Below are positions 10,801 to 58,971 of a DNA stretch of 64,000 nt, one piece after another. Location: the NCBI GenBank assembly GCA_965285935.1, contig OZ260664.1, positions 23,622,001 through 23,686,000 of the forward strand, read 5' to 3'. A program made the position numbers and the translations under genes. The notes beneath the pieces were generated by a model, which ran no database searches, was not told where the DNA came from, and was given only the letters and a program-made list of their open reading frames with translations. The DNA is from Ophelia neglecta (taxonomy: Eukaryota). Numbering within the stretch: position 1 is the stretch's first letter; each line of letters starts with the position of its first letter.

Positions 10801-13800
10801 AATATGACAGATAGTGTATGCGTTTTGTGAATCCTTCCATCCTTGTGCATTTTAGAGAAGACGTGGGACAGAAAGCCCTGCAGAGGCAGGCAGAATTCTT
10901 GGCCAAGCAGGTGGAGCAGCTAGCCATCACCAACCCAGAGACCCAGTCTGAGGAGGAGTGCAGAGAACCACCAGACAGTCTGTCCCCACTCAGCCACAGT
11001 AGTTGTAGTAGTCCGCAGTCATTCGGTAAAGCTGGCAGTCCTATGGTCAAGCCAGCTTTGGAAGTTGAACAATCAGTGGTAAAGCTATTAACTCCATTTT
11101 CTAGTTCTTTATATGTGTGAGTGAATCTTAGCTAAGAAATTTCTGAGGCAAAGGGGCTTAAATTGAACCAGTTATGCATGAAGATATGTACTTGTGCCAT
11201 TATAGGTTCTTAACTCCAATCGATGATGGAGTGGGGTTATATTAGCCACATAAATGTGTACATGACAGGAACATTATACTTCAGTGTGTAATATGACTGC
11301 ATTTGATGAAGAAAATCTTTATCACGATACCTGCAATAAGAGTAGATTGTGTGACTCGCATTACTGCAAAAAGCTCTCTGTAAGATTATCAAAATTTTGA
11401 ATTTTTTTCATTTCTGAAAATGGCAGAAAAAAGACCTGCTTTGGAAACTGTTGATAATACATGCATGTAAAATGTAAAAATGACTATTAAAGAGCACGAA
11501 CCTACTATATTGTGTTCTAAATATCTTAGGAAAAAGTTTTTAAATAAATGTTATAAAACACCTACATTTATTGTAGTTGTGACATTACCGGTACATTCAC
11601 CATATGAAATCCCACTTTGTTAGAGCAAAAATGAAATTGTGGAATTTTGATCCTGCAAATAATATCCAGAAGGGTTAGAGTAAGAGGTCTGGCCTTTATC
11701 TCTCCTCTTGCTTATATTTAAACTACCACTAAATTTATCAGCCAAAATATAATATAGTTGTTGACATATATTTTGGAAGTCAACCAATAGTAACACACAT
11801 GACTGGCAAAGCTTGTACATTCAGAATAAGTTTATCCATAAAATCAGTTTTTTGAGTTTGAAAGGGGTGTGAGGCGGGCGAGGGTGGGGGGGGGGGGATA
11901 AATATTTTAGCCAGGGAATTGAAGACCATACCCTATGAAACATAGGCTTGAAAAAATATTTTTCTACAAATACCCCAAAATGCCTGCAAGTATCTAGATT
12001 TCTACTGTATACCTGTCTCTCCCTATTGAGATACTTTGAGATAATTAAAATGATTAATCTGTTGTTTTTTCTAGGTGAATGTCAAGGTAGGTGGCAGGAA
12101 GTTTGTGATAGACCTGAGACGGAAGGACAAGTTCAGTCCTGGGCCTGGCAACTCGGCCTATGACCCTCACGCCACCAATGACACCAATCACACCATCCCG
12201 CTTGTCACTCCCAAATTCCTGGGGGACGATGATGATAACCAGGCGGATGTTACATGCATTTCCTCCGATGATCCAACATCGGATTCAGCAGTTTCAACCC
12301 AAGATGAGCCTCCAGCGATGGAGGTGGATAGTATTCCCCAAAAGATTCACATTGTCAATGGCATGGCTGACCATCGAAAGAATGGCCACCTTTCGTACAA
12401 GTCCAGCCCAGTTCAGACTACCCGAGTCCACCTGGTGTCAGCCAGCCACACCGTAGTGCAAAGTCCAAACACATCACAAGGTTTATTAGCGGCTCAGGCG
12501 AGCAGTCAAAGCCCTGAACTGAGCAGCTCACTTCTGCGGGGCTTGCTTAAAGACAGCCCGGCGTCAGTCCCGGCCAGCCGACAGACTACAGTCACCGAGA
12601 TGGACCTCATGTCAGGGCCTAGCGACTACAACCCGGCAGCCGGCTCACAGCAAGGCAAGTGTCCTCCTGTCCATAACACCACCAACCCTCATCCACCAAG
12701 TCTATAAACCTATATAACCAGCTTTAGCATGGCAGATTTCACCTTTTACTTAACAGCTTGTAAAACTCAGAATTTCATTAGATAAAAGGGTGGTAATCCT
12801 GAGAAGAATTACCACTTACTGTCAACTACCAAAGTTTTAAACCTGGTCCCAAAGCTCATGAGAATGATACAACACAAAGCGTTATACTAAGTGCAGGTCA
12901 CTGTCTCATGATGCTCGAGTATAATCAAAAGTTGGGCATGTTACTTAACCAACTGCTTAAATAAAAAAGTCAACAATTGATTTAAACAAAATCTAAGTTT
13001 GTTAACATTAAATAACTTGTATTAGGTAGATGGTTTCTATTCCAGGTTAAAGTTGTGAATTTTCTGTTAAAAAGTGAAATATTCTTTGTACAAAAATATA
13101 ACTTTATTGATTTATTACAAACTTTATACATTGCAATATGAAGTCCCTCATTAATCCAACTTATCTAACTTTTAGTTAGGAATCATTACTAACATGTACA
13201 AGTTTGCCACAATGTGAGATTTAGTGCAGTGATTTCCCGTTGAACATCTCACTTGTTACTAACCAATTTTAATAGTGATGATCAAGTGGGGACAGCCATT
13301 GATTGATTATGAAGATTGCACTGAATTAACATGACTAACTGTATGTAGAGTTATAATAAAATTGTCACTGATTATAGACATGCAATGGTGAAAACAGTGG
13401 ACAAGATGTAGCTTTCAAGATGATTGACTGAATGGATTGAATATTAGCCATTTTATTTTCAGATTGGAGTGGAGGTTCATTGTCCAGAGGAAGTGATATC
13501 AGTAGTGTGGAGTCTGTGTCATCTAGGGTAAGAATGGAGGCCCTTTTAATCCTTAGCTTCCTTGTTTACTACTCCAATTCTTTTGTGTGCGGTCAATAAA
13601 ACAAAGCCAAAATTAACTTCATTATAACTGTCTTTACAGTGTTCTATTGGCATTTTCCCTGATTTTCCTATTCCATTAGCCAGGCCTTCTGACACGCAGA
13701 AGTGTAAAGGGCGAAAGTTAATGCTCACAGATTAGGTATATTTGTGAGATGAAAAGATTACTACGTGCATCTGTTAAATAGGCAAATGTTCAAAATGTTG

Positions 13801-16800
13801 TACCTAAAAAACACAAGGAGTTGACATATGCTTATAAGTTCTCTGTGAGTTAGGTTTGGAACTGATAAAATTGCCATAGCTGTTTCTGAAAAAAAAGGTA
13901 ACTGAATGTTTTAAAGATATATAGGTATCATCATCAAAGCACACTGGAGAAAAAAGCCTCAGGGCACTTGTGAGTACACCAAAGAGCCAGGAAAAATGCA
14001 AGATGGTCACCGTCTGCTAATTTTTGATAACAACACCTAGTTCTTTGACAGAAGCTTTCCAGGCAGTGACAATAGTTTTTCTGTATTCAAGCTTGAACCT
14101 TTGTTTATTTTTCATAAAAGTGTTACTTTTCCAGATGTAGTGTCTTGTGTTGTCTGAATTTTTTAGGTTTTTTTCTTATAATTGCTCCAGTGCAAGTCTC
14201 CTGTATATCCTATAATCATATATTTGTTTCAGTGCGAGTCTCCTGTGTCGGCCAGCGTTAGAGATGAGCTGACCAAACAGCTGTTAGATCACCAAGACAA
14301 GCTGGAGGCCAGTCTACGAGAGCAGCAACAGGAGTTAACACAGCTAAAACGTCACCTGGGCGCAACTTCCAGCGACAATGCCAACCCAAAACTACAGGCG
14401 TTAGAGGTATACCAACTAATGCAAACATTATAATTAACATATTCAACCTATGTCTTGAATTATGTTTCCAAAAATATAATTTGCATATGAAATTACAATT
14501 TGAATAACAAAAAAATTTAAAGTTGAGTTTTGCATGTTACATTCAGTGAGTTATAAGTACTCAGGAACCAAAAGAAGATCAGTTTTATTGAACATATCTT
14601 CCAGACCTTAAAGAGGGCTGTAGTGTTGGCAGTTAACTCTTTAACACTACAGCCATCTACAGGGCTTATATTCAGAGTTGTAAAGGTTAATTTGGCTGAC
14701 TAATCAAATTGCACCCACATTAACTGTGTATGTTTATTTGTCTGTTGATTTATAAATTACATGCCACCAAAAGTTTCAAATTGGTCATCTAATGAGCCTT
14801 AATAGCATCTACATCCACTGCATCATTTTGTTGTTATAACTGATTGCACATCAGTGCATTATTTATGTTCATCATACTCTGGATCAGAGGCATGTGTTTC
14901 ATGTATGGGACATTGAATTTCTCCATACTTTCCCTTTAAATAATAATCAAATTGCCTGCAGGCAGCCTTGAGCAACTTTTATCAGTGTTACAAATAAATT
15001 GTGGTTAAAAACTTCAGTTAGACATCAGTAAGACTTTTGGGATATTGGAGATGTTGAATGCAATTTTACATTGAATTTTCCTAGCCCAACCTGAGATCTA
15101 TATAGTACTGTATGTCTCTGACTTTACTGTATATTTATCAGAGGTTCATGCATTTAAACAATCTAGTGTCAGCAGTATGTAACAGCCTTATTTACATAAA
15201 ATAGTTAAACTGTGATTTTGCTCGCACCAAAATACTACAATTCTTTAATACAGAAGCTATTTTTATATAGGCAGAGTGGACTATTGAATAGCACTGATAA
15301 TGAAAAGCCCATTTTGTGAAAAGCATAATACATATTTAAATTTAATCGCTAGAGTTTATATGATAACTACTGTCAGGTGTAACTAATGAGAAAGCATTAC
15401 AGGTTTACTATAATAAATTAGGCATACTACAGTTATACTGTAGTGTTATGTTATAAAAGTACAGTGTATCACATTAAACGTATAGTAAACTACAGTAAAT
15501 CTATAGTTGATTAATAACTTTCTGAGCAAACGCTTGTTAACTACATTGTATACAGTTAACTATAATGACTTATAGTAAATTACTGTAAAACCATATTTGA
15601 TTATTAAATGGGGTTTCACACAAACCTATAAAGTAAAATGGAGCAGACTTAAGACCCCTTGATGGTCACCTATGGAAACCAGGCCTCAAGCGTGGCCAAG
15701 TGGTTAGAGCGTTCGCCTTGCAAGTGGTAGATCAGGGTTCAATTCTCGTTTGCGTCAAACCAAAGACGTAAAAATAGGTACTGATATCTCCCCTGCTAGG
15801 CGCCAGGTATTTCGGGGGTAGTATCAGGACTGGTCAACCCGGTGTCAGTATAATGTGACTGGGTGGTGTTCCCTATCTGGTGTCTACGGCAGGTACTCCA
15901 GTGAGGCAGCACTCTAAAGAGGGCATTGAGCCCACTGTCACAAGTAGGCACCAAGGTGATATGACCAGATAAGTGTTAAAACCACGTAAAACCCTAAACA
16001 ACCAACCTATTCAAGCGATTAATATGATTAGGCATATTGCGTCACACAAACTCTGGCCTACTAAGCCTCTGCATCGGCTCCTGGCAACCCCATATTGTGG
16101 CATACTCTACAGAGGCCAAGGTTTCATTTTGACCTTCCAAGCCCTCAAAAAACAGAAATCCTCCCCACTGTCATGGTTAAAACTCTGTCACCTGGCAAAC
16201 ATGTAAGCCAAATAGACCAACTAGACTTCTGGACAGGTTTGGCATGGGCACTATAATAGTGATAAGAAAAGTATGGAAACATGTACAGAGTGGGGTACAT
16301 TGCAGATGAAAGTTTAAGATACATGTAAACTGAGGGGGGGGGAGGGGGGAGGGGGGAGGGGGGGGGAGGGGGGAGGGGACTCAGTGGGACTTGTGTGCTT
16401 AGGTAAGTCAAATGATACAGTACATCAGAAAACTATAGTATGTGCTTTTTATCTTCAGGAGAAATGTCAAAGACATGGTGAAGACCTGCAGGCACTGAAA
16501 GTGAAACTAGAACATCTGAACAATTTGAGCCAGAAATCTAATGGAGCCCCCCAAGATGATAAAGGAGAGGAACCAATAGTGCCCCCTAGTGGCAACAAAA
16601 CACCTGTGTCCTCTCACCTGAATGGCTATAATGGACACACAGTGGGGATTCAGAGTGAGGGCTCGGGAGTGGGACAGACGGCAGACCCTTTCATGAAGCC
16701 CAGACCCTCCCACGCCGCTGGCACTGCGAGCAGTCATGTAGGGGAGACCCCTGAATCTCTCACCAGCACACTGGCCACACTCCAGTCTTTGGCAGCCACT

Positions 16801-17625
16801 CAGGGCTCTAGCTTGTTTGAAACTGCTGAGGTTCAAGCTTTGGTTAAGACACTTGTGATGGTCCTCTCCCAGGCAAAAAGAGCCGAGGCTCCCAGAGAGG
16901 TAAACACTGCCAAGGCTGCTATCCACTCAATACCAAGGCCCCCAGGGCCCTCGGCACCAGGGCCCTCTACACCAGGGCCCTCTTCATGGCCCAATCCTAT
17001 ACCAGCCCCCTCTAGCCAGCTGGATTGTCACCAAACTAAATTGAAAACACTACTTTCTGGAAAACAACAAAGTGACCTGATCACCCTCTCATCCCCAAAT
17101 CAAACTACCTCTGCTACTACTATCACACCTGGATATACAGGATCAAATGGTACAAAACCATATTCCAACACAGAAAACAGTACACACTTATCTAACCCAG
17201 GCAGTACAGGAAAAATTCACAACAGAATGGAGGTATCTTCAAGTTGTGTGACATCTAGCAATTCTACTCAGTCACAACCTGCGATCTCAACACCAGGTGG
17301 CACCTCTGATTATCCAGCAGACGACAACTCTCAGTCATCAAACTGCAGTCACAAATTTGATATGCTCCGGAAAATTCTAACGGAATATAAGGAAAGGCAC
17401 AGTGACAGCAAAACCAACGGTTTGGCAGTGCATGAAACAGCTGCCACGACAACAAAAGGGCATTTAGAAAATGAGATGCCGAAACCAGTTATCTACAATG
17501 ACAGCTTACAAGACAACATGCTGATTAATGTAGATCATCTGTTATCACAGTTGGGAGATGAACTAGACTTGTCTGTTATAAATGAATTTGATCTCCAAGA
17601 TCTGCTAAACACAGGAAATGTATGA
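4831..17625 (+). CDS. bHLH-PAS transcription factor, Methoprene-tolerant/CLOCK-like; 5'-partial (bHLH exons not found, probably upstream of the window); ~967 aa visible
   Basis: Phase-consistent exons: 4831-4963, 5618-5764, 6016-6175, 8921-9027, 9349-9496, 10856-11078, 12075-12654 (GC donor), 13463-13527, 14233-14406, 16459-17625; total 2904 nt. PAS-A: VDILGHPLQNIVHPQDHDILARQF..HRKFCIKM..YETIEVVGHI..HLIAIAK. PAS-B/PAC: WITRHEMDGKITYSDPR..GFMPGESIGLSAYHLLHPDD..CTFRMFTKSRDQLYVQT..FIISINDVLKEDVG. Then a long S/T/P/Q-rich tail. Confidence 0.88.
7028..8080. mobile_element. Non-autonomous Tc1/mariner (pogo/Tigger-like) DNA transposon, 1053 bp
   Basis: 23-bp TIRs CAGTGGTCCCTG(T/C)TTACAACGAC with one mismatch; TA on both flanks (7026-7027, 8081-8082); no transposase ORF. 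Confidence 0.9.
8137..8446 (-). mobile_element. tRNA-derived SINE (Meta-SINE-like core), copy 1
   Basis: Pol III A-box-like TTGCCGAGTGG and B-box-like GGTTCAACTC on the minus strand; (CAA)n tail; perfect 13-bp TSD ACTTGACATAGGG at 8124-8136 and 8447-8459; homologous to 15682-16007. Confidence 0.88.
15682..16007 (+). mobile_element. tRNA-derived SINE (Meta-SINE-like core), copy 2
   Basis: A-box TGGCCAAGTGG, B-box GGTTCAATTC, core GTCAGTATAATGTGACTGGGT..CAGTGAGGCAGCACT, AAAC/CAAC tail. It is a reverse-complement match to copy 1. Confidence 0.85.
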
Positions 17626-44813: not shown

Positions 44814-46157
44814 TTATTGGCAATTGGACCGTTTATTCAATATCCTGATCAGTTCATTTTCATTGGCTAATAAAAACCCGACACGCGACTGTAAGCTGGC
44901 CAACCGACGCTGGTCCATATTGTCAAAGAGGTCCAAACTTCGTATAAAGAAATGTGACATGCATCGTCTGATCAGGAAGTCATGTAAAGTGCGGAGAAGT
45001 TCCACAAATGCCATCTCTACGGGATCTCGTTGCCATCGTTGTGCATGGTCGACAGTCGAGTCGAAGCCGTGCAGTAGAACCGTCTTGATGTGGTATGACG
45101 TCAGTCCTTCTAGAGTTGGTTCCACTTTGACCAAAGCCTTGAGAATTTTGAAAGCCGTTGTCCTTGCTCCGCGGTCTGCTTTGTCCATCAAAGCTAGAAT
45201 GGTGCGCTCTTTCCTGACGTAAGACGCCCTCCAAACCAGCTCATGTCCGGGTCGAGTGTCATGCGCATACGGCTGGGTGAGTAGGTAACATTCCTCTTTT
45301 GGCATGTAAATGGCTGGTTTCAGGTGAAAAGTGTACTTATTCCACTTGACCGCTATTTGGCTTCTCTTAGCCTGAGATATAAAGGGATCTAAAGAAGTAG
45401 ATAAATTGAGCTTCAATGCTCTTTCCACCAGCTCATGAACGAGCGTGGCTGTCTTTAGCGAGGAGAGGAACAGTCCACTGTCTGAGCGTCCAAACCGGTG
45501 TTGGTCCGGAGGTTGACCAGGCCTTACCCGGAATTTTTTTATGGGAAGTACCCTATACCCGCCCTCAAGATTGTCCAACTTAGTCTTTCCGCGATCAAAC
45601 AACAAATAAATATCTACATCATATTTAGACACCACCTGGGTCAGGTCGAAAGTGCTTCCTGCAAGGAAGTGTCCAGTTATTTTCATTCCGTGCTTGTTGG
45701 CTAGTTTGACGAGACGAGGCATAAGATATTCCAGAAAGCAATTAGTTTTCGATCGAGCGCGTTCGATTTGTTTTCCTGGAATGAGTGCAACTTCCTCAAA
45801 GAATTTCTGCAGCGATGCGGCCAGCTTTGATTCCACTCTTAGCATTGTTCTCTCAAATTGGATTTTTCTTGGCGAGGAAACTATCCAGTCCTGCATGACT
45901 GTGCTATTCTGGGTCTCGAGTATGTTGGATAGCGGCACAGGTCCCATTGACCGCCGACTCTTCCTGCGAACGGACCTAGGGGATATCGAGGGAAGCCTTG
46001 TTCTGGACTCTCTGCCAGCAAGGGGTGGAGACTCCCCGGCCAACACTACTCTAGAACGCCGTCGAACAATCTCTCTGGGAGCCTCCGACGTCGGCAGATT
46101 GTTGATCACAGAAGTTGTCCCATAAGGAATCTTCTCACGCACAACTCCAGATGCCAT
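44814..46157 (-). CDS. Mab-21 family nucleotidyltransferase-fold protein (cGAS-like receptor / MiD49-51-like), 447 aa, single coding exon
   Basis: 1344-nt ORF with NTase signature LAGS-x11-DVD (G167, S168, D180, D182), WRASYVRKERTIL, RTTAFKILKAL, LTSYHIKTVLLH and W..F..LL..L..FL..MSHFFI..LDLF (Mab-21 C-lobe). No cGAS zinc ribbon. Basic, low-complexity N-terminus of ~100 aa. Confidence 0.93.
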   Translation of the reverse strand: MASGVVREKIPYGTTSVINNLPTSEAPREIVRRRSRVVLAGESPPLAGRESRTRLPSISPRSVRRKSRRSMGPVPLSNILETQNSTVMQDWIVSSPRKIQFERTMLRVESKLAASLQKFFEEVALIPGKQIERARSKTNCFLEYLMPRLVKLANKHGMKITGHFLAGSTFDLTQVVSKYDVDIYLLFDRGKTKLDNLEGGYRVLPIKKFRVRPGQPPDQHRFGRSDSGLFLSSLKTATLVHELVERALKLNLSTSLDPFISQAKRSQIAVKWNKYTFHLKPAIYMPKEECYLLTQPYAHDTRPGHELVWRASYVRKERTILALMDKADRGARTTAFKILKALVKVEPTLEGLTSYHIKTVLLHGFDSTVDHAQRWQRDPVEMAFVELLRTLHDFLIRRCMSHFFIRSLDLFDNMDQRRLASLQSRVGFLLANENELIRILNKRSNCQ

Positions 46158-48685
46158 AACTATCCTGTATTCCTAGTTATATAGTGCCTGCTCATCGAAA
46201 GATCGTTGACGATAGAGGCGTTCGGCTTCCTCTTTCTTTTTCTTGACGAGTTTTCACATTGATTCACACTCAATGGTCAATAATGCAGAGGAACCACGTG
46301 TATTGGATAGATATTAGACATCCTACAAGAGAGATAAAACGCAATAATTCAGTAGTACAAACTTAAGAAGTTTTCTATGTGGTTTAAATCTGCGTTGAAT
46401 GTATTGCTCGTTGGTGTGCCTTACCATTTCGCTGTTTGTCTCCTGTCAATTCGTATGCACTATTAATTCTTTAGGCCCAATTCATTAATTGTATGGATGT
46501 ATTCTCTTAATAATTTTTGGATATAGTTGCTCACCATTATAAAAAATCTTATATCTACTCAATTTTAGAGTAGTGCTGCTCAGAAAGCTGTATCGTAGAA
46601 ATGTTTATTTTGTCCTTTTTCTTTCCATACCATTGTGCTTGCAGACATTGTTGACATAGCAGCTTAAGAATGTAATGTGAGCGCAGAAAATCGTTCTGGT
46701 TGCTCTCGTCACATCTCGGTTATTTATGGGAAAGCACGTCGGCCTCGAGGTTTTGTTATGTATATTGACAGTTTGTTTACCCACAGCCACTCGAATGTGT
46801 TTTGCCCCACACTTTTTGTCATAACTCAGCCTGCCGTAGGGCATATACATGCATTTAATGTAATTTTGCTCACCCTTTAAAGTAAAAGGAATATTAAGTG
46901 CTCAAATAGCTAGAATTTAGAGAGATTTAATAATGCTGTTTAGTTGAAAGTGCCGAACAGTATTAAATTATACATCCAATACTATAAAGCGGGGTAATAC
47001 ATGTAACTCACATCAGAAAGTAGTATACAGTAATTTCACGCATCGTTTAAATCCAAGGAGAAAGACTTATTCCGCGAAGAAAACCAAGTTTATCCTTCGC
47101 CCATGCCATGTAAAGGCAAGTAGTATCTGTGTCCGTGTAATACACAGCAGTGGCTAATACACAGCAGTATACTGTGGCACATATTGCGGGAGGTATGTTT
47201 CTTGCTTATATTACATTTGTTTCTCATAATCTGTTCAAAGAACCCCACAACTACATAGGTTAAATGGTACGAGTCAAAAAGATAGTCGAATATCGATAGC
47301 CTCCAACCCATCCGGAAACCAGGCAAAATTGTCTTTAGATCTAATACTCACATTAATTGTTTTCAAATTTGAACTAAGTAATCACAACCCGTCCGGAGAC
47401 AGGTTTTAAATTTTTGGAGTCAAAATTTGAACAAAGTAATGCTAGGGACATCCAGGTGGCCAATATCGTGCGAGGATATATTCGCCTAGCTCTGCTTGTT
47501 TCACTATACTCGTATATAAAAATCTTGTACTTATTAAATTAATTCGATAGATGTGGCAAAACCGTTTTGGCTGAAGAGTTTTTTTTCCCCGAAACCGGCC
47601 TGCATGGCTGCAAGGCATATAGTAACTGTTGTTCGAAAAATGTGTTGCAAGGAAGGAGGGTCAAGTTTTTCGAAATACAGAGTAATCAATTTTAACCCAG
47701 TTCCAGCTCGTTATAAGCGTATAAGTATGTATCGTTAGTCCAGTAAAACAATGACTAGGCCTATCATATCCTACACCTAAATCAATATATAATCCATACC
47801 TTAAGAAATGAGCCTTTAAGTCACAAACAAGCCTGATTCTAATAATTGTATAGGCATATTAGTAATTAAGTTAAGAACGTTCAGAATACGTACACGATTT
47901 TCATGTCAGATTTTAGCTCCCTTTTCGTCCCAATTTCTACAGAAAATCCAATTATGTATTTTTCGACGAACATGAATGTGGATTTAGTTCTTTGGTTTAA
48001 AAAGGTGACAAAGCCTGGACTTGGCTATCATTGCCACTGAATCTGTCTCCAACAAGTAGAAGTATTCTAAAATCAGTATATATGGCTATGCAAACATTGC
48101 TAGCCTAAGTTTGATTAATCACTTTACGGATTATTGCCCTATTACAAAACATCAGCCCATTGAATTTTCAATGGTTGGTAAGACTTAGTTAATCATTTTT
48201 GCTCCATTGATTGTGTCAATGAGTAGACACATAAACACCATTTAAGGGACGGAAATATCCAAATAGGAACTGCTTGATTGAACAATTTACATTTGTATTC
48301 AAATCTCGATGTTTAGAGCATTGCACTAATGATTTCAATATGACATTGTACGATTATAAAAATAAACATGTATGTTGGATTGATGAAAAAACGGATCCTT
48401 GTTTAAACCCTTTAACATTTCTTATTTTTTACACGTTGTAAATTAAAGGTAAACAATCTAGCGCTTGGCGCACGAAATGATACATTCCTCATTACAAATG
48501 GCTGTTTATAGAACCGTGTAGCTAAATTCTGCTTCACATAACATGGCTTTTACCTTCGATTTAATATGTTAAGGATTATCAGTAATTGCTTCTGATTTAG
48601 CTTTGAACAAAACAGTATGTATTCGCCCAGGGTTACCGTGTACGCAGGTTTATATTATATCTGCCCTGAGGATCAGGGTTTAGCT

Positions 48686-57840: not shown

Positions 57841-58206
57841 TTAAGCTGGTACGTTAATTTGTCAGAAGCTACACGAAATATTGAAAATGATCAGTGGCAT
57901 GAATTTGACGTCTTTTTTACTTTCTATCTTTGCAGTAAGTGTCAGTGAAGAAAACTCTGAACTAGTTTGCGGGCGGCAGTGGGGAGGCAGTGTGCATCTG
58001 TCCAAGAGAAAATCATAACCTTTTCTTGATTATCTTCCACAAACCATCAATGCACGTGGTTGATATTCAACTAATATTTTCTTATAAGTGCTCCTTAAAA
58101 GTGCACAATATTTGCACGCAAGGGAAAGCTCTGCAACTATATCTCAGTTATTTGATATTTGTTTAAACGAACTAGTATTCAACAGAGAGGGACACCGGGA
58201 GCCATA

Positions 58207-58971
58207 ATGGAGGACCCCAGTCCTTTCTGGCCGATGACGGAAGCAGAAGATAATGAACAGGAAATGTCGCCACAGCAGGAAGCCTCGCTTGGAGAGGCCA
58301 AACAAGAGTCTTTTGGGCAGTATATGTCACTGGTCAAAATATCTCCTAATGACACTATTAAATCAGCCAAGCCTGTAGATCGTCATGTTCGGTTTGGTGG
58401 GGAAGAAAGTTATTTTCAAGGTCAGTCATCGAGCGAGATTACCAATCAGGCTGCCTACACGCAAGACAAACAGCATCCATTTAGTGGACCAGGGTTTATC
58501 GGACCAATTATTATGGAAAACAATCAGTCTTCATTTCAAACCCCCCGATTTGGCCCTGCCGACTCGGTGACAACGATTGTAAATCTTAATCCCAGTGGTC
58601 GGGATGAGATTTCAGCCAGAGCTACCTGTGTCCCCAAAGGTATGACAACCGATAATCCGAAGACCGGGCATTTCCTACCGACCCCAATAATCACGACATC
58701 TCCATCGCGACCCACGCCTAAGCTTGAAAACGCACCGATATTGATACATGGTCACTACAATGTTTCTCAGACTATTTCTCTCCAAAGGGTGCCAGAATCG
58801 CCCCAATTGGTACCACAAAGTCCTATCCAGATGACGCCAACTTTTGACGACCAATGTCAACTTGTCTCCCCCGACTGTTTTTCGCTGACACAACAAAAAC
58901 CAATGCCCGCCCACCACCTTCGAGGCCCGCTGGAAGAAAAAGACAGTTATGTATGTTGTTGCTTATCATAG
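58207..58971 (+). CDS. Uncharacterised, probably disordered protein (254 aa) with RVxF motif and C-terminal CaaX (CCCLS)
   Basis: 765-nt ORF, clearly GC-richer than its flanks; ATAATGG Kozak context at 58207; possible acceptor ttcaacag at 58185; P/S/T/Q-rich; ends KDSYVCCCLS*. Confidence 0.7.
   Translation: MEDPSPFWPMTEAEDNEQEMSPQQEASLGEAKQESFGQYMSLVKISPNDTIKSAKPVDRHVRFGGEESYFQGQSSSEITNQAAYTQDKQHPFSGPGFIGPIIMENNQSSFQTPRFGPADSVTTIVNLNPSGRDEISARATCVPKGMTTDNPKTGHFLPTPIITTSPSRPTPKLENAPILIHGHYNVSQTISLQRVPESPQLVPQSPIQMTPTFDDQCQLVSPDCFSLTQQKPMPAHHLRGPLEEKDSYVCCCLS

Follow-up and report, generated by a model that had tools for sequence, protein, structure and literature searches.

A lophotrochozoan Mab-21 subfamily with asparagine or histidine at the third catalytic position, probably a nucleotide-binding scaffold

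Introduction

Mab-21 proteins with an impaired active site are already known from the MAB21L and MiD49/51 groups. MAB21L1, which carries E73, E75 and Q169, binds ATP and CTP, no activity was detected for it, and its nucleotide sat outside the active site (PMC4897736). The same paper leaves unclear whether an Asn at the position of cGAS D319 still permits activity. MiD49 and MiD51 are termed chordate-specific (PMC3926961, PMC5765209). A loop of MiD51 has a role in Drp1 recruitment, to which the PEYFP loop and the R235-D249 pair have been tied (PMC3926961), and MAB21L1 uses the corresponding loop for self-contact (PMC4897736). For active cGAS-like receptors (cGLRs), the active-site pattern h[QT]GS-X8-20-[DE]h[DE]h-X50-90-h[DE]h has been laid down (PMC9980059).

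The window analysed here is a stretch of 64,000 nucleotides from Ophelia neglecta, and all feature coordinates refer to it. An earlier note, made from its letters, had described one of its genes as a cGAS-like receptor with an Asp-to-His change in the catalytic triad and MiD49/51-like features. Our analysis supports the general part of that description, i.e., a protein of the Mab-21/cGLR fold that is MiD51-like in sequence and is either a pseudo-enzyme or an altered enzyme. The idea of a special Asp-to-His change leading towards MiD is not borne out, and the gene is better seen as part of a conserved clade of probable pseudo-enzymes. The new element is a lophotrochozoan subfamily with a D/E-x-D...Asn/His site. 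Searches of the open-licence literature showed no paper on it. Catalogues of cGAS-like receptors require a complete triad and so leave the subfamily out. The Capitella member ELU07615 is absent from six supplementary text files of PMC9980059.

Results and Discussion

A single-copy, single-exon gene

An open reading frame on the minus strand (46157-44814) encodes a 447-aa protein of the Mab-21/cGLR fold in a single exon. An in-frame TAG (46175-46173) lies upstream of the start ATG at 46157, and a putative splice acceptor is found further upstream.

44814..46157, minus strand: coding sequence, 447 aa, single exon (open reading frame, PF20266, genome search, fold model)
46323..46340, minus strand: pyrimidine tract ending in AG, likely splice acceptor (read from the sequence)

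Given this stop, nothing but 5' untranslated sequence could come from an exon that began at 46322. A hidden upstream exon supplying a membrane anchor is unsupported, since the stop lies just before the ATG. The protein was also said to lack an N-terminal anchor, and this is borne out by its hydropathy, whose best 19-residue value reaches 0.63 within residues 1-130 and 0.72 over the full length. In a Pfam scan of the 447-aa protein, PF20266 matches residues 332-426 with 65.4 bits (cut-off 24.1), whereas PF03281 passes in the orthologue P0004 and not in the protein itself.

A search of the 762-Mb genome (G000) returned one full-length match for the gene. The same genome has 106 or more Mab-21_C matches, most of them long frames in a single exon, and their clusters on C2, C5, C7, C8, C9 and C12 represent a large cGLR expansion; STING-domain matches are located on C1 and C9. 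A single copy beside at least 106 such matches is how a conserved housekeeping gene would behave, and is unlike a receptor undergoing expansion. All eight paralogues that were placed in our tree (single-exon genes, as outgroup) have intact triads.

Contigs from three runs of one sample, which may be the source of the genome assembly itself, contain two haplotypes of the gene that differ at 22 coding sites. The core pN/pS between them is 0.30 (6 synonymous and 6 non-synonymous changes; p 0.039; one sample), a weak indication that the core is under constraint.

Elsewhere in the window, the plus-strand open frames 10815-11120, 12075-12707 and 16318-17625 have the appearance of exons of a low-complexity gene (10815-17625), and a Pfam scan gave no match for the latter two. 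A 271-aa Pro/Ser/Gln-rich open frame with a Cys cluster at its end (58156-58971, plus strand) had no match in the Pfam scan either.

The third catalytic aspartate is replaced throughout a subfamily

The active site is largely arranged as the earlier note had it. The GS-x11-D180-x-D182 motif is intact (G167-S168; D180, 45620-18; D182, 45614-12), and His278, encoded by CAC at 45326-45324, occupies the site of cGAS D319. This placement is based on a profile-profile alignment of 28 family members with 36 hand-picked cGLR hits, mostly with intact triad (323 columns, probability 100%), in which H278 aligns with an Asp that is invariant in the cGLR set; the invariant Asp in turn falls on the third catalytic Asp in cGAS chains from mouse and human. 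Our cGAS numbering is anchored on PMC4897736 and on these chains. No other Asp or Glu that could take the third position is found on the strand (residues 275-285) that holds H278 in the predicted structure. The zinc-ribbon insert of cGAS, visible in the profile alignment to cGAS chains, is missing from the protein between E317 and K340, in line with the absence claimed before. Q295 is indeed found at the cGAS K362 site, yet 23/28 family members have Arg there.

45654..45659, minus strand: G167-S168, nucleotide-binding loop (G in 28/28, S in 27/28; family alignment)
45612..45620, minus strand: D180-x-D182, first two metal-binding acids (both acidic in 23/28; family alignment)
45324..45326, minus strand: His278 (CAC), third catalytic Asp position, cGAS D319 (family and cGAS profile alignments)
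45273..45275, minus strand: Q295, cGAS K362 site (family alignment)
45084..45230, minus strand: R310, E317, K340, Y355 and K358, retained nucleotide-pocket residues (family alignment)

R310, E317, K340, Y355 and K358 are the equivalents of cGAS R376, E383, K414, Y436 and K439, whose nucleotide-pocket roles are described in PMC4897736, and are retained in 28, 27, 27, 26 and 25 of the 28 members, respectively. An assembly error or polymorphism at His278 was rejected: the contigs from the three runs of the one sample show no other letter in the codon, and both haplotypes are the same there.

Relatives were collected with a word-index search, which gave 13 proteins at 35-58% identity, and with HMMER, which gave 285 at E 0.001, the best 150 of these 285 being examined. 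The 28-member family comprises the query, the 13 word-index relatives and 14 of the next 16 HMMER matches, the two omitted being a two-domain protein with intact triad and a fragment; few of the 28 are named and some are near-duplicates. Of 30 proteins looked up, 7 clusters had a name, one of these lying outside the clade. Close relatives with a name are annelids (Paralvinella, Lamellibrachia, Capitella, Owenia), and those of the outer clade are nemerteans (Lineus, Tubulanus) and a mollusc (Haliotis). Atlas searches gave matches only to generic Mab-21 clusters.

At the third site the 28 members have Asn (21), His (5), Ser (1) or Tyr (1), and none has Asp. The nearest relative, which is 58% identical and pairs with the query at 100/99 in the tree, has Asn. 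The description of His278 as one base from GAC is thus correct as to the codon CAC but misleading, as the closest relative and most of the family have Asn. Neither is the His fixed or special among orthologues, since His versus non-His requires seven changes on a 52-row tree whose rows were hand-picked from about 125 full-length matches. We infer that the third Asp was lost early, in the ancestor of the clade, and mostly to Asn. Since Asn prevails and Asp is absent among the 28, His278 likely arose from Asn in a clade already devoid of Asp, as a repeated later change, probably from AAC to CAC to judge by the orthologue proteins. Residue 280 (45320-45318, minus strand), two positions after the third site, is polar (K, S, T, T) in four of the five His members and mostly Ile/Val in Asn members; this polarity could possibly be compensatory.

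Further positions of the active site differ from intact-triad proteins. The E216 equivalent is Glu in 3/28 family members versus 21/21 intact-triad proteins (D/N in 25/28 of the family), the K219 equivalent is Lys in 0/28 versus 20/21, and the S380 equivalent is retained in 2/28 versus 19/21; the E216 and K219 columns were not used when picking the intact-triad set. D180 or D182 is also lost in 5/28 members, and in the outer clade of nemertean and mollusc proteins the GS loop is missing or more acids are lost.

The same residues bear on the reading, unlikely in our judgement, that the protein is still a nucleotidyltransferase, slow or altered, in which Asn/His would serve as ligand of a metal (perhaps Mn) and the acceptor would not be GTP. 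The GS loop, the donor-side residues and, in 23/28 members, both first acids are kept, the third site is restricted to Asn/His in 26/28, the strongly basic surface (pI 8.9-10.2 in all 18 clade members computed) is as in nucleic-acid-activated cGLRs, the genome has STING-domain matches, and PMC4897736 leaves room for activity with an amide at D319. Against it stand the five members in which D180 or D182 is gone, the heavier losses of the outer clade, the missing E216 and K219 equivalents, which are near-invariant in intact-triad matches, and the finding that alanine at any triad position kills cGAS activity (PMC4897736). Distinctly unlikely in our eyes is the more specific version of an active enzyme with two carboxylates plus Asn/His that makes a non-canonical product and forms a soluble sister lineage of the MiD49/51 group. 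If true, such an active subfamily would put the supposedly 'dead' triads of the MAB21L type to a natural test.

Relation to MiD49 and MiD51

The likeness to MiD51/MiD49, which had been pointed out before, is real. The model built from the 28-row alignment has a mean pLDDT of 81.7 and is confident over the core, with the tail under 50. Its top fold match is MiD51 (Z 30.4, rmsd 2.8, 306 residues aligned), compared with Z 29.0, rmsd 2.8 and 308 aligned for cGAS and Z 28.2, rmsd 3.5 and 315 aligned for a beetle cGLR, most MiD51 and cGAS chains differing by just 1-2 Z. MiD51 is also the best full-length match by sequence, its chains being the only full-length ones among solved structures (39.6 bits).

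One reading makes the protein a soluble Drp1 adaptor of the MiD49/51 type, or an intermediate towards MiD that has survived. Such a reading would agree with the fold ranking of the model (Z 30.4 vs 29.0 for cGAS) and with the Asp and Gln at the E216/K219 sites that the family and MiD51 have in common. Moreover, P0176, a MiD-type protein (352 bits to MiD51) with a long branch and odd composition, finds only two proteins when used as query, namely the window gene (45.8 bits, C-lobe only) and a paralogue on C8 (43.5 bits, full length). Against this reading, the protein is without a membrane anchor, and its triad losses are opposite: in MiD51 the first two sites read His and Gln while Asp remains at the third, the reverse of the situation here. 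The PEYFP loop and the R235-D249 pair are not kept, the segment in their place being of like length with other conserved residues. Human MiD51 gives 81.5 bits to the C8 paralogue and 135.6 bits to an intact-triad invertebrate protein, compared to 39.6 bits here. Pfam MID51-like_C (PF21297) has no match at E 0.01 in the window protein, whereas the C8 paralogue passes the cut-off.

Trees were calculated with a single MiD-type row, without cGAS, MAB21L, ITPRIP or TMEM102 and with an ingroup chosen by similarity to the query. P0176 falls into a separate group (97/92 with the mixture model, 98/90 with the plain model) of seven proteins that includes the C8 paralogue P0181, its orthologue P0182 and intact-triad proteins, one of them from a crinoid; several members of the group have an intact triad and some an N-terminal hydrophobic segment. 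The query clade is separate from this MiD group and has an intact-triad protein as its sister (99/95); in the best tree, family and MiD group share one side, with weak support (80/56). Two tests spoke against a union of P0176 with the family, one without outgroups (p 0.029) and one for the inner 12 rows (p 0.014), whereas a position inside the wider family was not rejected (p 0.117; 14 rows, with outgroups); all three tests used LG+G4, a model that rejects true clades more often. As to the distance from MIEF in a tree, which the earlier note had named as a check, the best tree gives a slight preference to the family and the MiD group as sisters, and the MiD-type row itself groups apart. The opposite triad losses and the separate group do not support the proposal, as stated, of an intermediate between active cGLRs and MiD49/51. 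Judging from these alignments and trees, the window gene would be a cousin of MiD at most, and we regard a Drp1 adaptor or a surviving intermediate as highly improbable.

Other proteins in our searches are closer to MiD. The C8 paralogue P0181 (L002:712-2151, plus strand; G000 C8 about 67,993,900-67,995,350) is a 480-aa single-exon protein with an N-terminal hydrophobic segment at residues 17-35 (hydropathy 1.76) and a triad of N-x-D...H. MiD51 is its best match among solved structures, with the 81.5 bits given above, and an orthologue that is 56% identical has like anatomy, making it a candidate non-chordate MiD-like protein. P0162 and P0204 combine a similar hydrophobic N-terminal segment with a complete E-x-D...D triad, P0162 reaching the 135.6 bits to MiD51, and these two are better candidates than the window gene for an enzyme-to-MiD intermediate. 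Two further intact-triad proteins of the MiD-adjacent group, P0153 and P0154, carry a C-terminal tail that ends in LRGG and that we presume to be ubiquitin-like. Hydrophobic-anchored, MiD51-like proteins of non-chordate type, one of them in the same genome, contrast with the term 'chordate-specific' used for MiD49/51 in PMC3926961 and PMC5765209.

A disordered tail and two family-specific segments

Outside the active site, conservation is concentrated in a motif of the N-terminal tail and in two segments of the domain.

45831..46157, minus strand: N-terminal tail, residues 1-109, basic (pI 11.7), predicted disordered (pLDDT mostly <50 to residue 104)
45846..45884, minus strand: conserved tail motif, residues 92-104 (tail alignment, n=20)
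45462..45506, minus strand: family-specific conserved segment, residues 218-232 (family alignment; MiD51 alignment)
45030..45062, minus strand: family-specific conserved segment, residues 366-376, with D366, V369, D370, R374, W375 and Q376 (family alignment)

Hydropathy gave no membrane segment in tail residues 1-109, and among solved structures the tail had a single match, at chance level. In the tail motif, P96 and R97 are conserved in 20/20 sequences, E102 and T104 in 19/20 and S95 in 17/20, and its S-P-x-K/R could be a target of proline-directed kinases. RKIQF, at residues 97-101, fits the PP1-docking RVxF pattern, with F101 kept in 10/20 and replaced by Tyr in two. This sequence may resemble the docking motif of PP1 inhibitor-1.

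The family might accordingly be PP1 targeting subunits that dock via this motif, which would be compatible with a scaffold and would name its partner. Among the 23 core-family tails with 25 or more residues, eight contain the strict pattern [KR][KR]x?[VI]x[FW] (0.3 in shuffled tails), these being homologous and not independent copies. A [VI][RK]F word some 34 residues ahead of the domain, a pattern chosen after the data were seen, occurs in 9/26 outer-clade tails (0.67 shuffled) and in 1/25 control tails. A tail that is predicted to be disordered would suit docking, and over 70% of PP1 regulators carry RVxF (PMC5005033). Nevertheless, the motif Phe is present in 10/20 only, whereas the adjacent P, R, E and T are near-invariant, so that something other than PP1 docking probably keeps the segment conserved, and Val stands in 94% of known RVxF motifs where this one has Ile (PMC5005033). 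A complex prediction without alignments, for residues 76-115 and a metagenome PP1 catalytic subunit, scored 0.00 and speaks neither for nor against docking; the metagenome subunit was taken in place of the genome's own PP1 genes, which introns interrupt. We consider a role in PP1 targeting doubtful.

In the segment 218-232, D218, R224, S225 and S232 are at least 90% conserved in the family, and the segment aligns with the Drp1-recruitment loop of MiD51. Neither this segment nor 366-376, the most conserved ones unique to the family, is a known cGAS ligand site, which speaks against a further reading, that of a decoy or brake of the cGLR-STING system that would bind nucleic acid or cyclic dinucleotides without signalling. 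A basic protein with a basic tail and a retained pocket would be suited to such a role, and with more than 100 Mab-21 matches and STING-domain matches the genome would offer a system to restrain. The gene, however, is single-copy and kept across annelids, unlike the clustered cGLRs, and we think a decoy very unlikely.

A probable nucleotide-binding scaffold

The reading that we consider probable is that this lophotrochozoan Mab-21 subfamily is a catalytically silent, nucleotide-binding scaffold and not a second-messenger synthase. The subfamily would first have lost the third Asp, mostly to Asn, with His278 as a later, repeated change from Asn. With no third carboxylate and no E216, K219 and S380 equivalents, the acceptor hydroxyl and the second metal would not be set up, so that synthesis of cyclic dinucleotides would be lost or very slow. 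The GS loop, D180/D182, R310, E317, K340, Y355 and K358 could still hold a ligand in the donor site, be it an NDP, an NTP or a completed cyclic dinucleotide, which would steady the two-lobed cage. The cage may then offer family-invariant segments, chiefly residues 218-232, to a partner protein. Conservation would thereby have shifted to the segments 218-232 and 366-376 and the tail motif 92-104 as partner-binding surfaces, the S-P-R-K of the tail motif being a likely phospho-regulated element.

The losses of D180/D182 and of the GS loop among relatives would be foreseen if conservation concerned something other than catalysis. As a counterpoint to a silent scaffold, Asn and His are possible metal ligands, and the constraint may fit an altered enzyme as well. 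Nucleotide binding in the donor site is not guaranteed, because the nucleotide of MAB21L1 was bound elsewhere.

A scaffold of this kind would be another independent route from enzyme to likely scaffold within the cGAS fold. The subfamily also provides a natural series at the D319 site (Asn, His, Ser), with further decay in nemerteans and molluscs, which bears on the open MAB21L1 question of whether an amide at this site permits catalysis.

Comparison with known systems

In its overall anatomy the family resembles MAB21L1/MAB21L2, with which it shares the Mab-21 fold, two acids combined with a non-acid third site and a conserved low-copy gene; like MAB21L1, for which no activity is shown (PMC4897736), it has kept the donor site and lost the acceptor side. 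It differs in its Asn/His, its basic tail and its own conserved segments. An orthologue of MAB21L1 was rejected, as 5EOG is not among the 45 matches of the window protein at E 1. The MAB21L orthologue of this genome is instead a multi-exon gene with third-site Gln on C7 (54,960,910-54,962,648, plus strand; L005/L052), with 349.9 bits to 5EOG.

Neither MiD51 nor the family has a zinc ribbon; both carry D and Q where cGAS has E216 and K219 and, with inferred numbering, Lys at the sites of K368 and K372, and a conserved segment of the family lies in the loop that matches the Drp1-recruitment region. In contrast to MiD51/MiD49, it lacks the anchor, keeps the first two acids and has lost the third, carries another loop sequence and forms a separate branch.

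The active cGLRs (cGAS, coral cGLR1 8GJY and beetle cGLR) share with it the two-lobed cage, the GS loop, the donor-nucleotide residues and a basic surface, and 8GJY is the top-scoring sequence match of the protein (54.1 bits, C-lobe only). Homology to cGLRs extends over the NTase core and the helical bundle, with the 323 aligned columns at 100% probability, and the predicted structure is like those of known cGLRs (cGAS Z 29.0, beetle cGLR Z 28.2). The active site departs from the motif of PMC9980059 in having His278 at the third site and Ala166 before GS. Thus, in contrast to active cGLRs, the window family is without the third Asp and the E216, K219 and S380 equivalents, and its gene is single-copy and not expanded.
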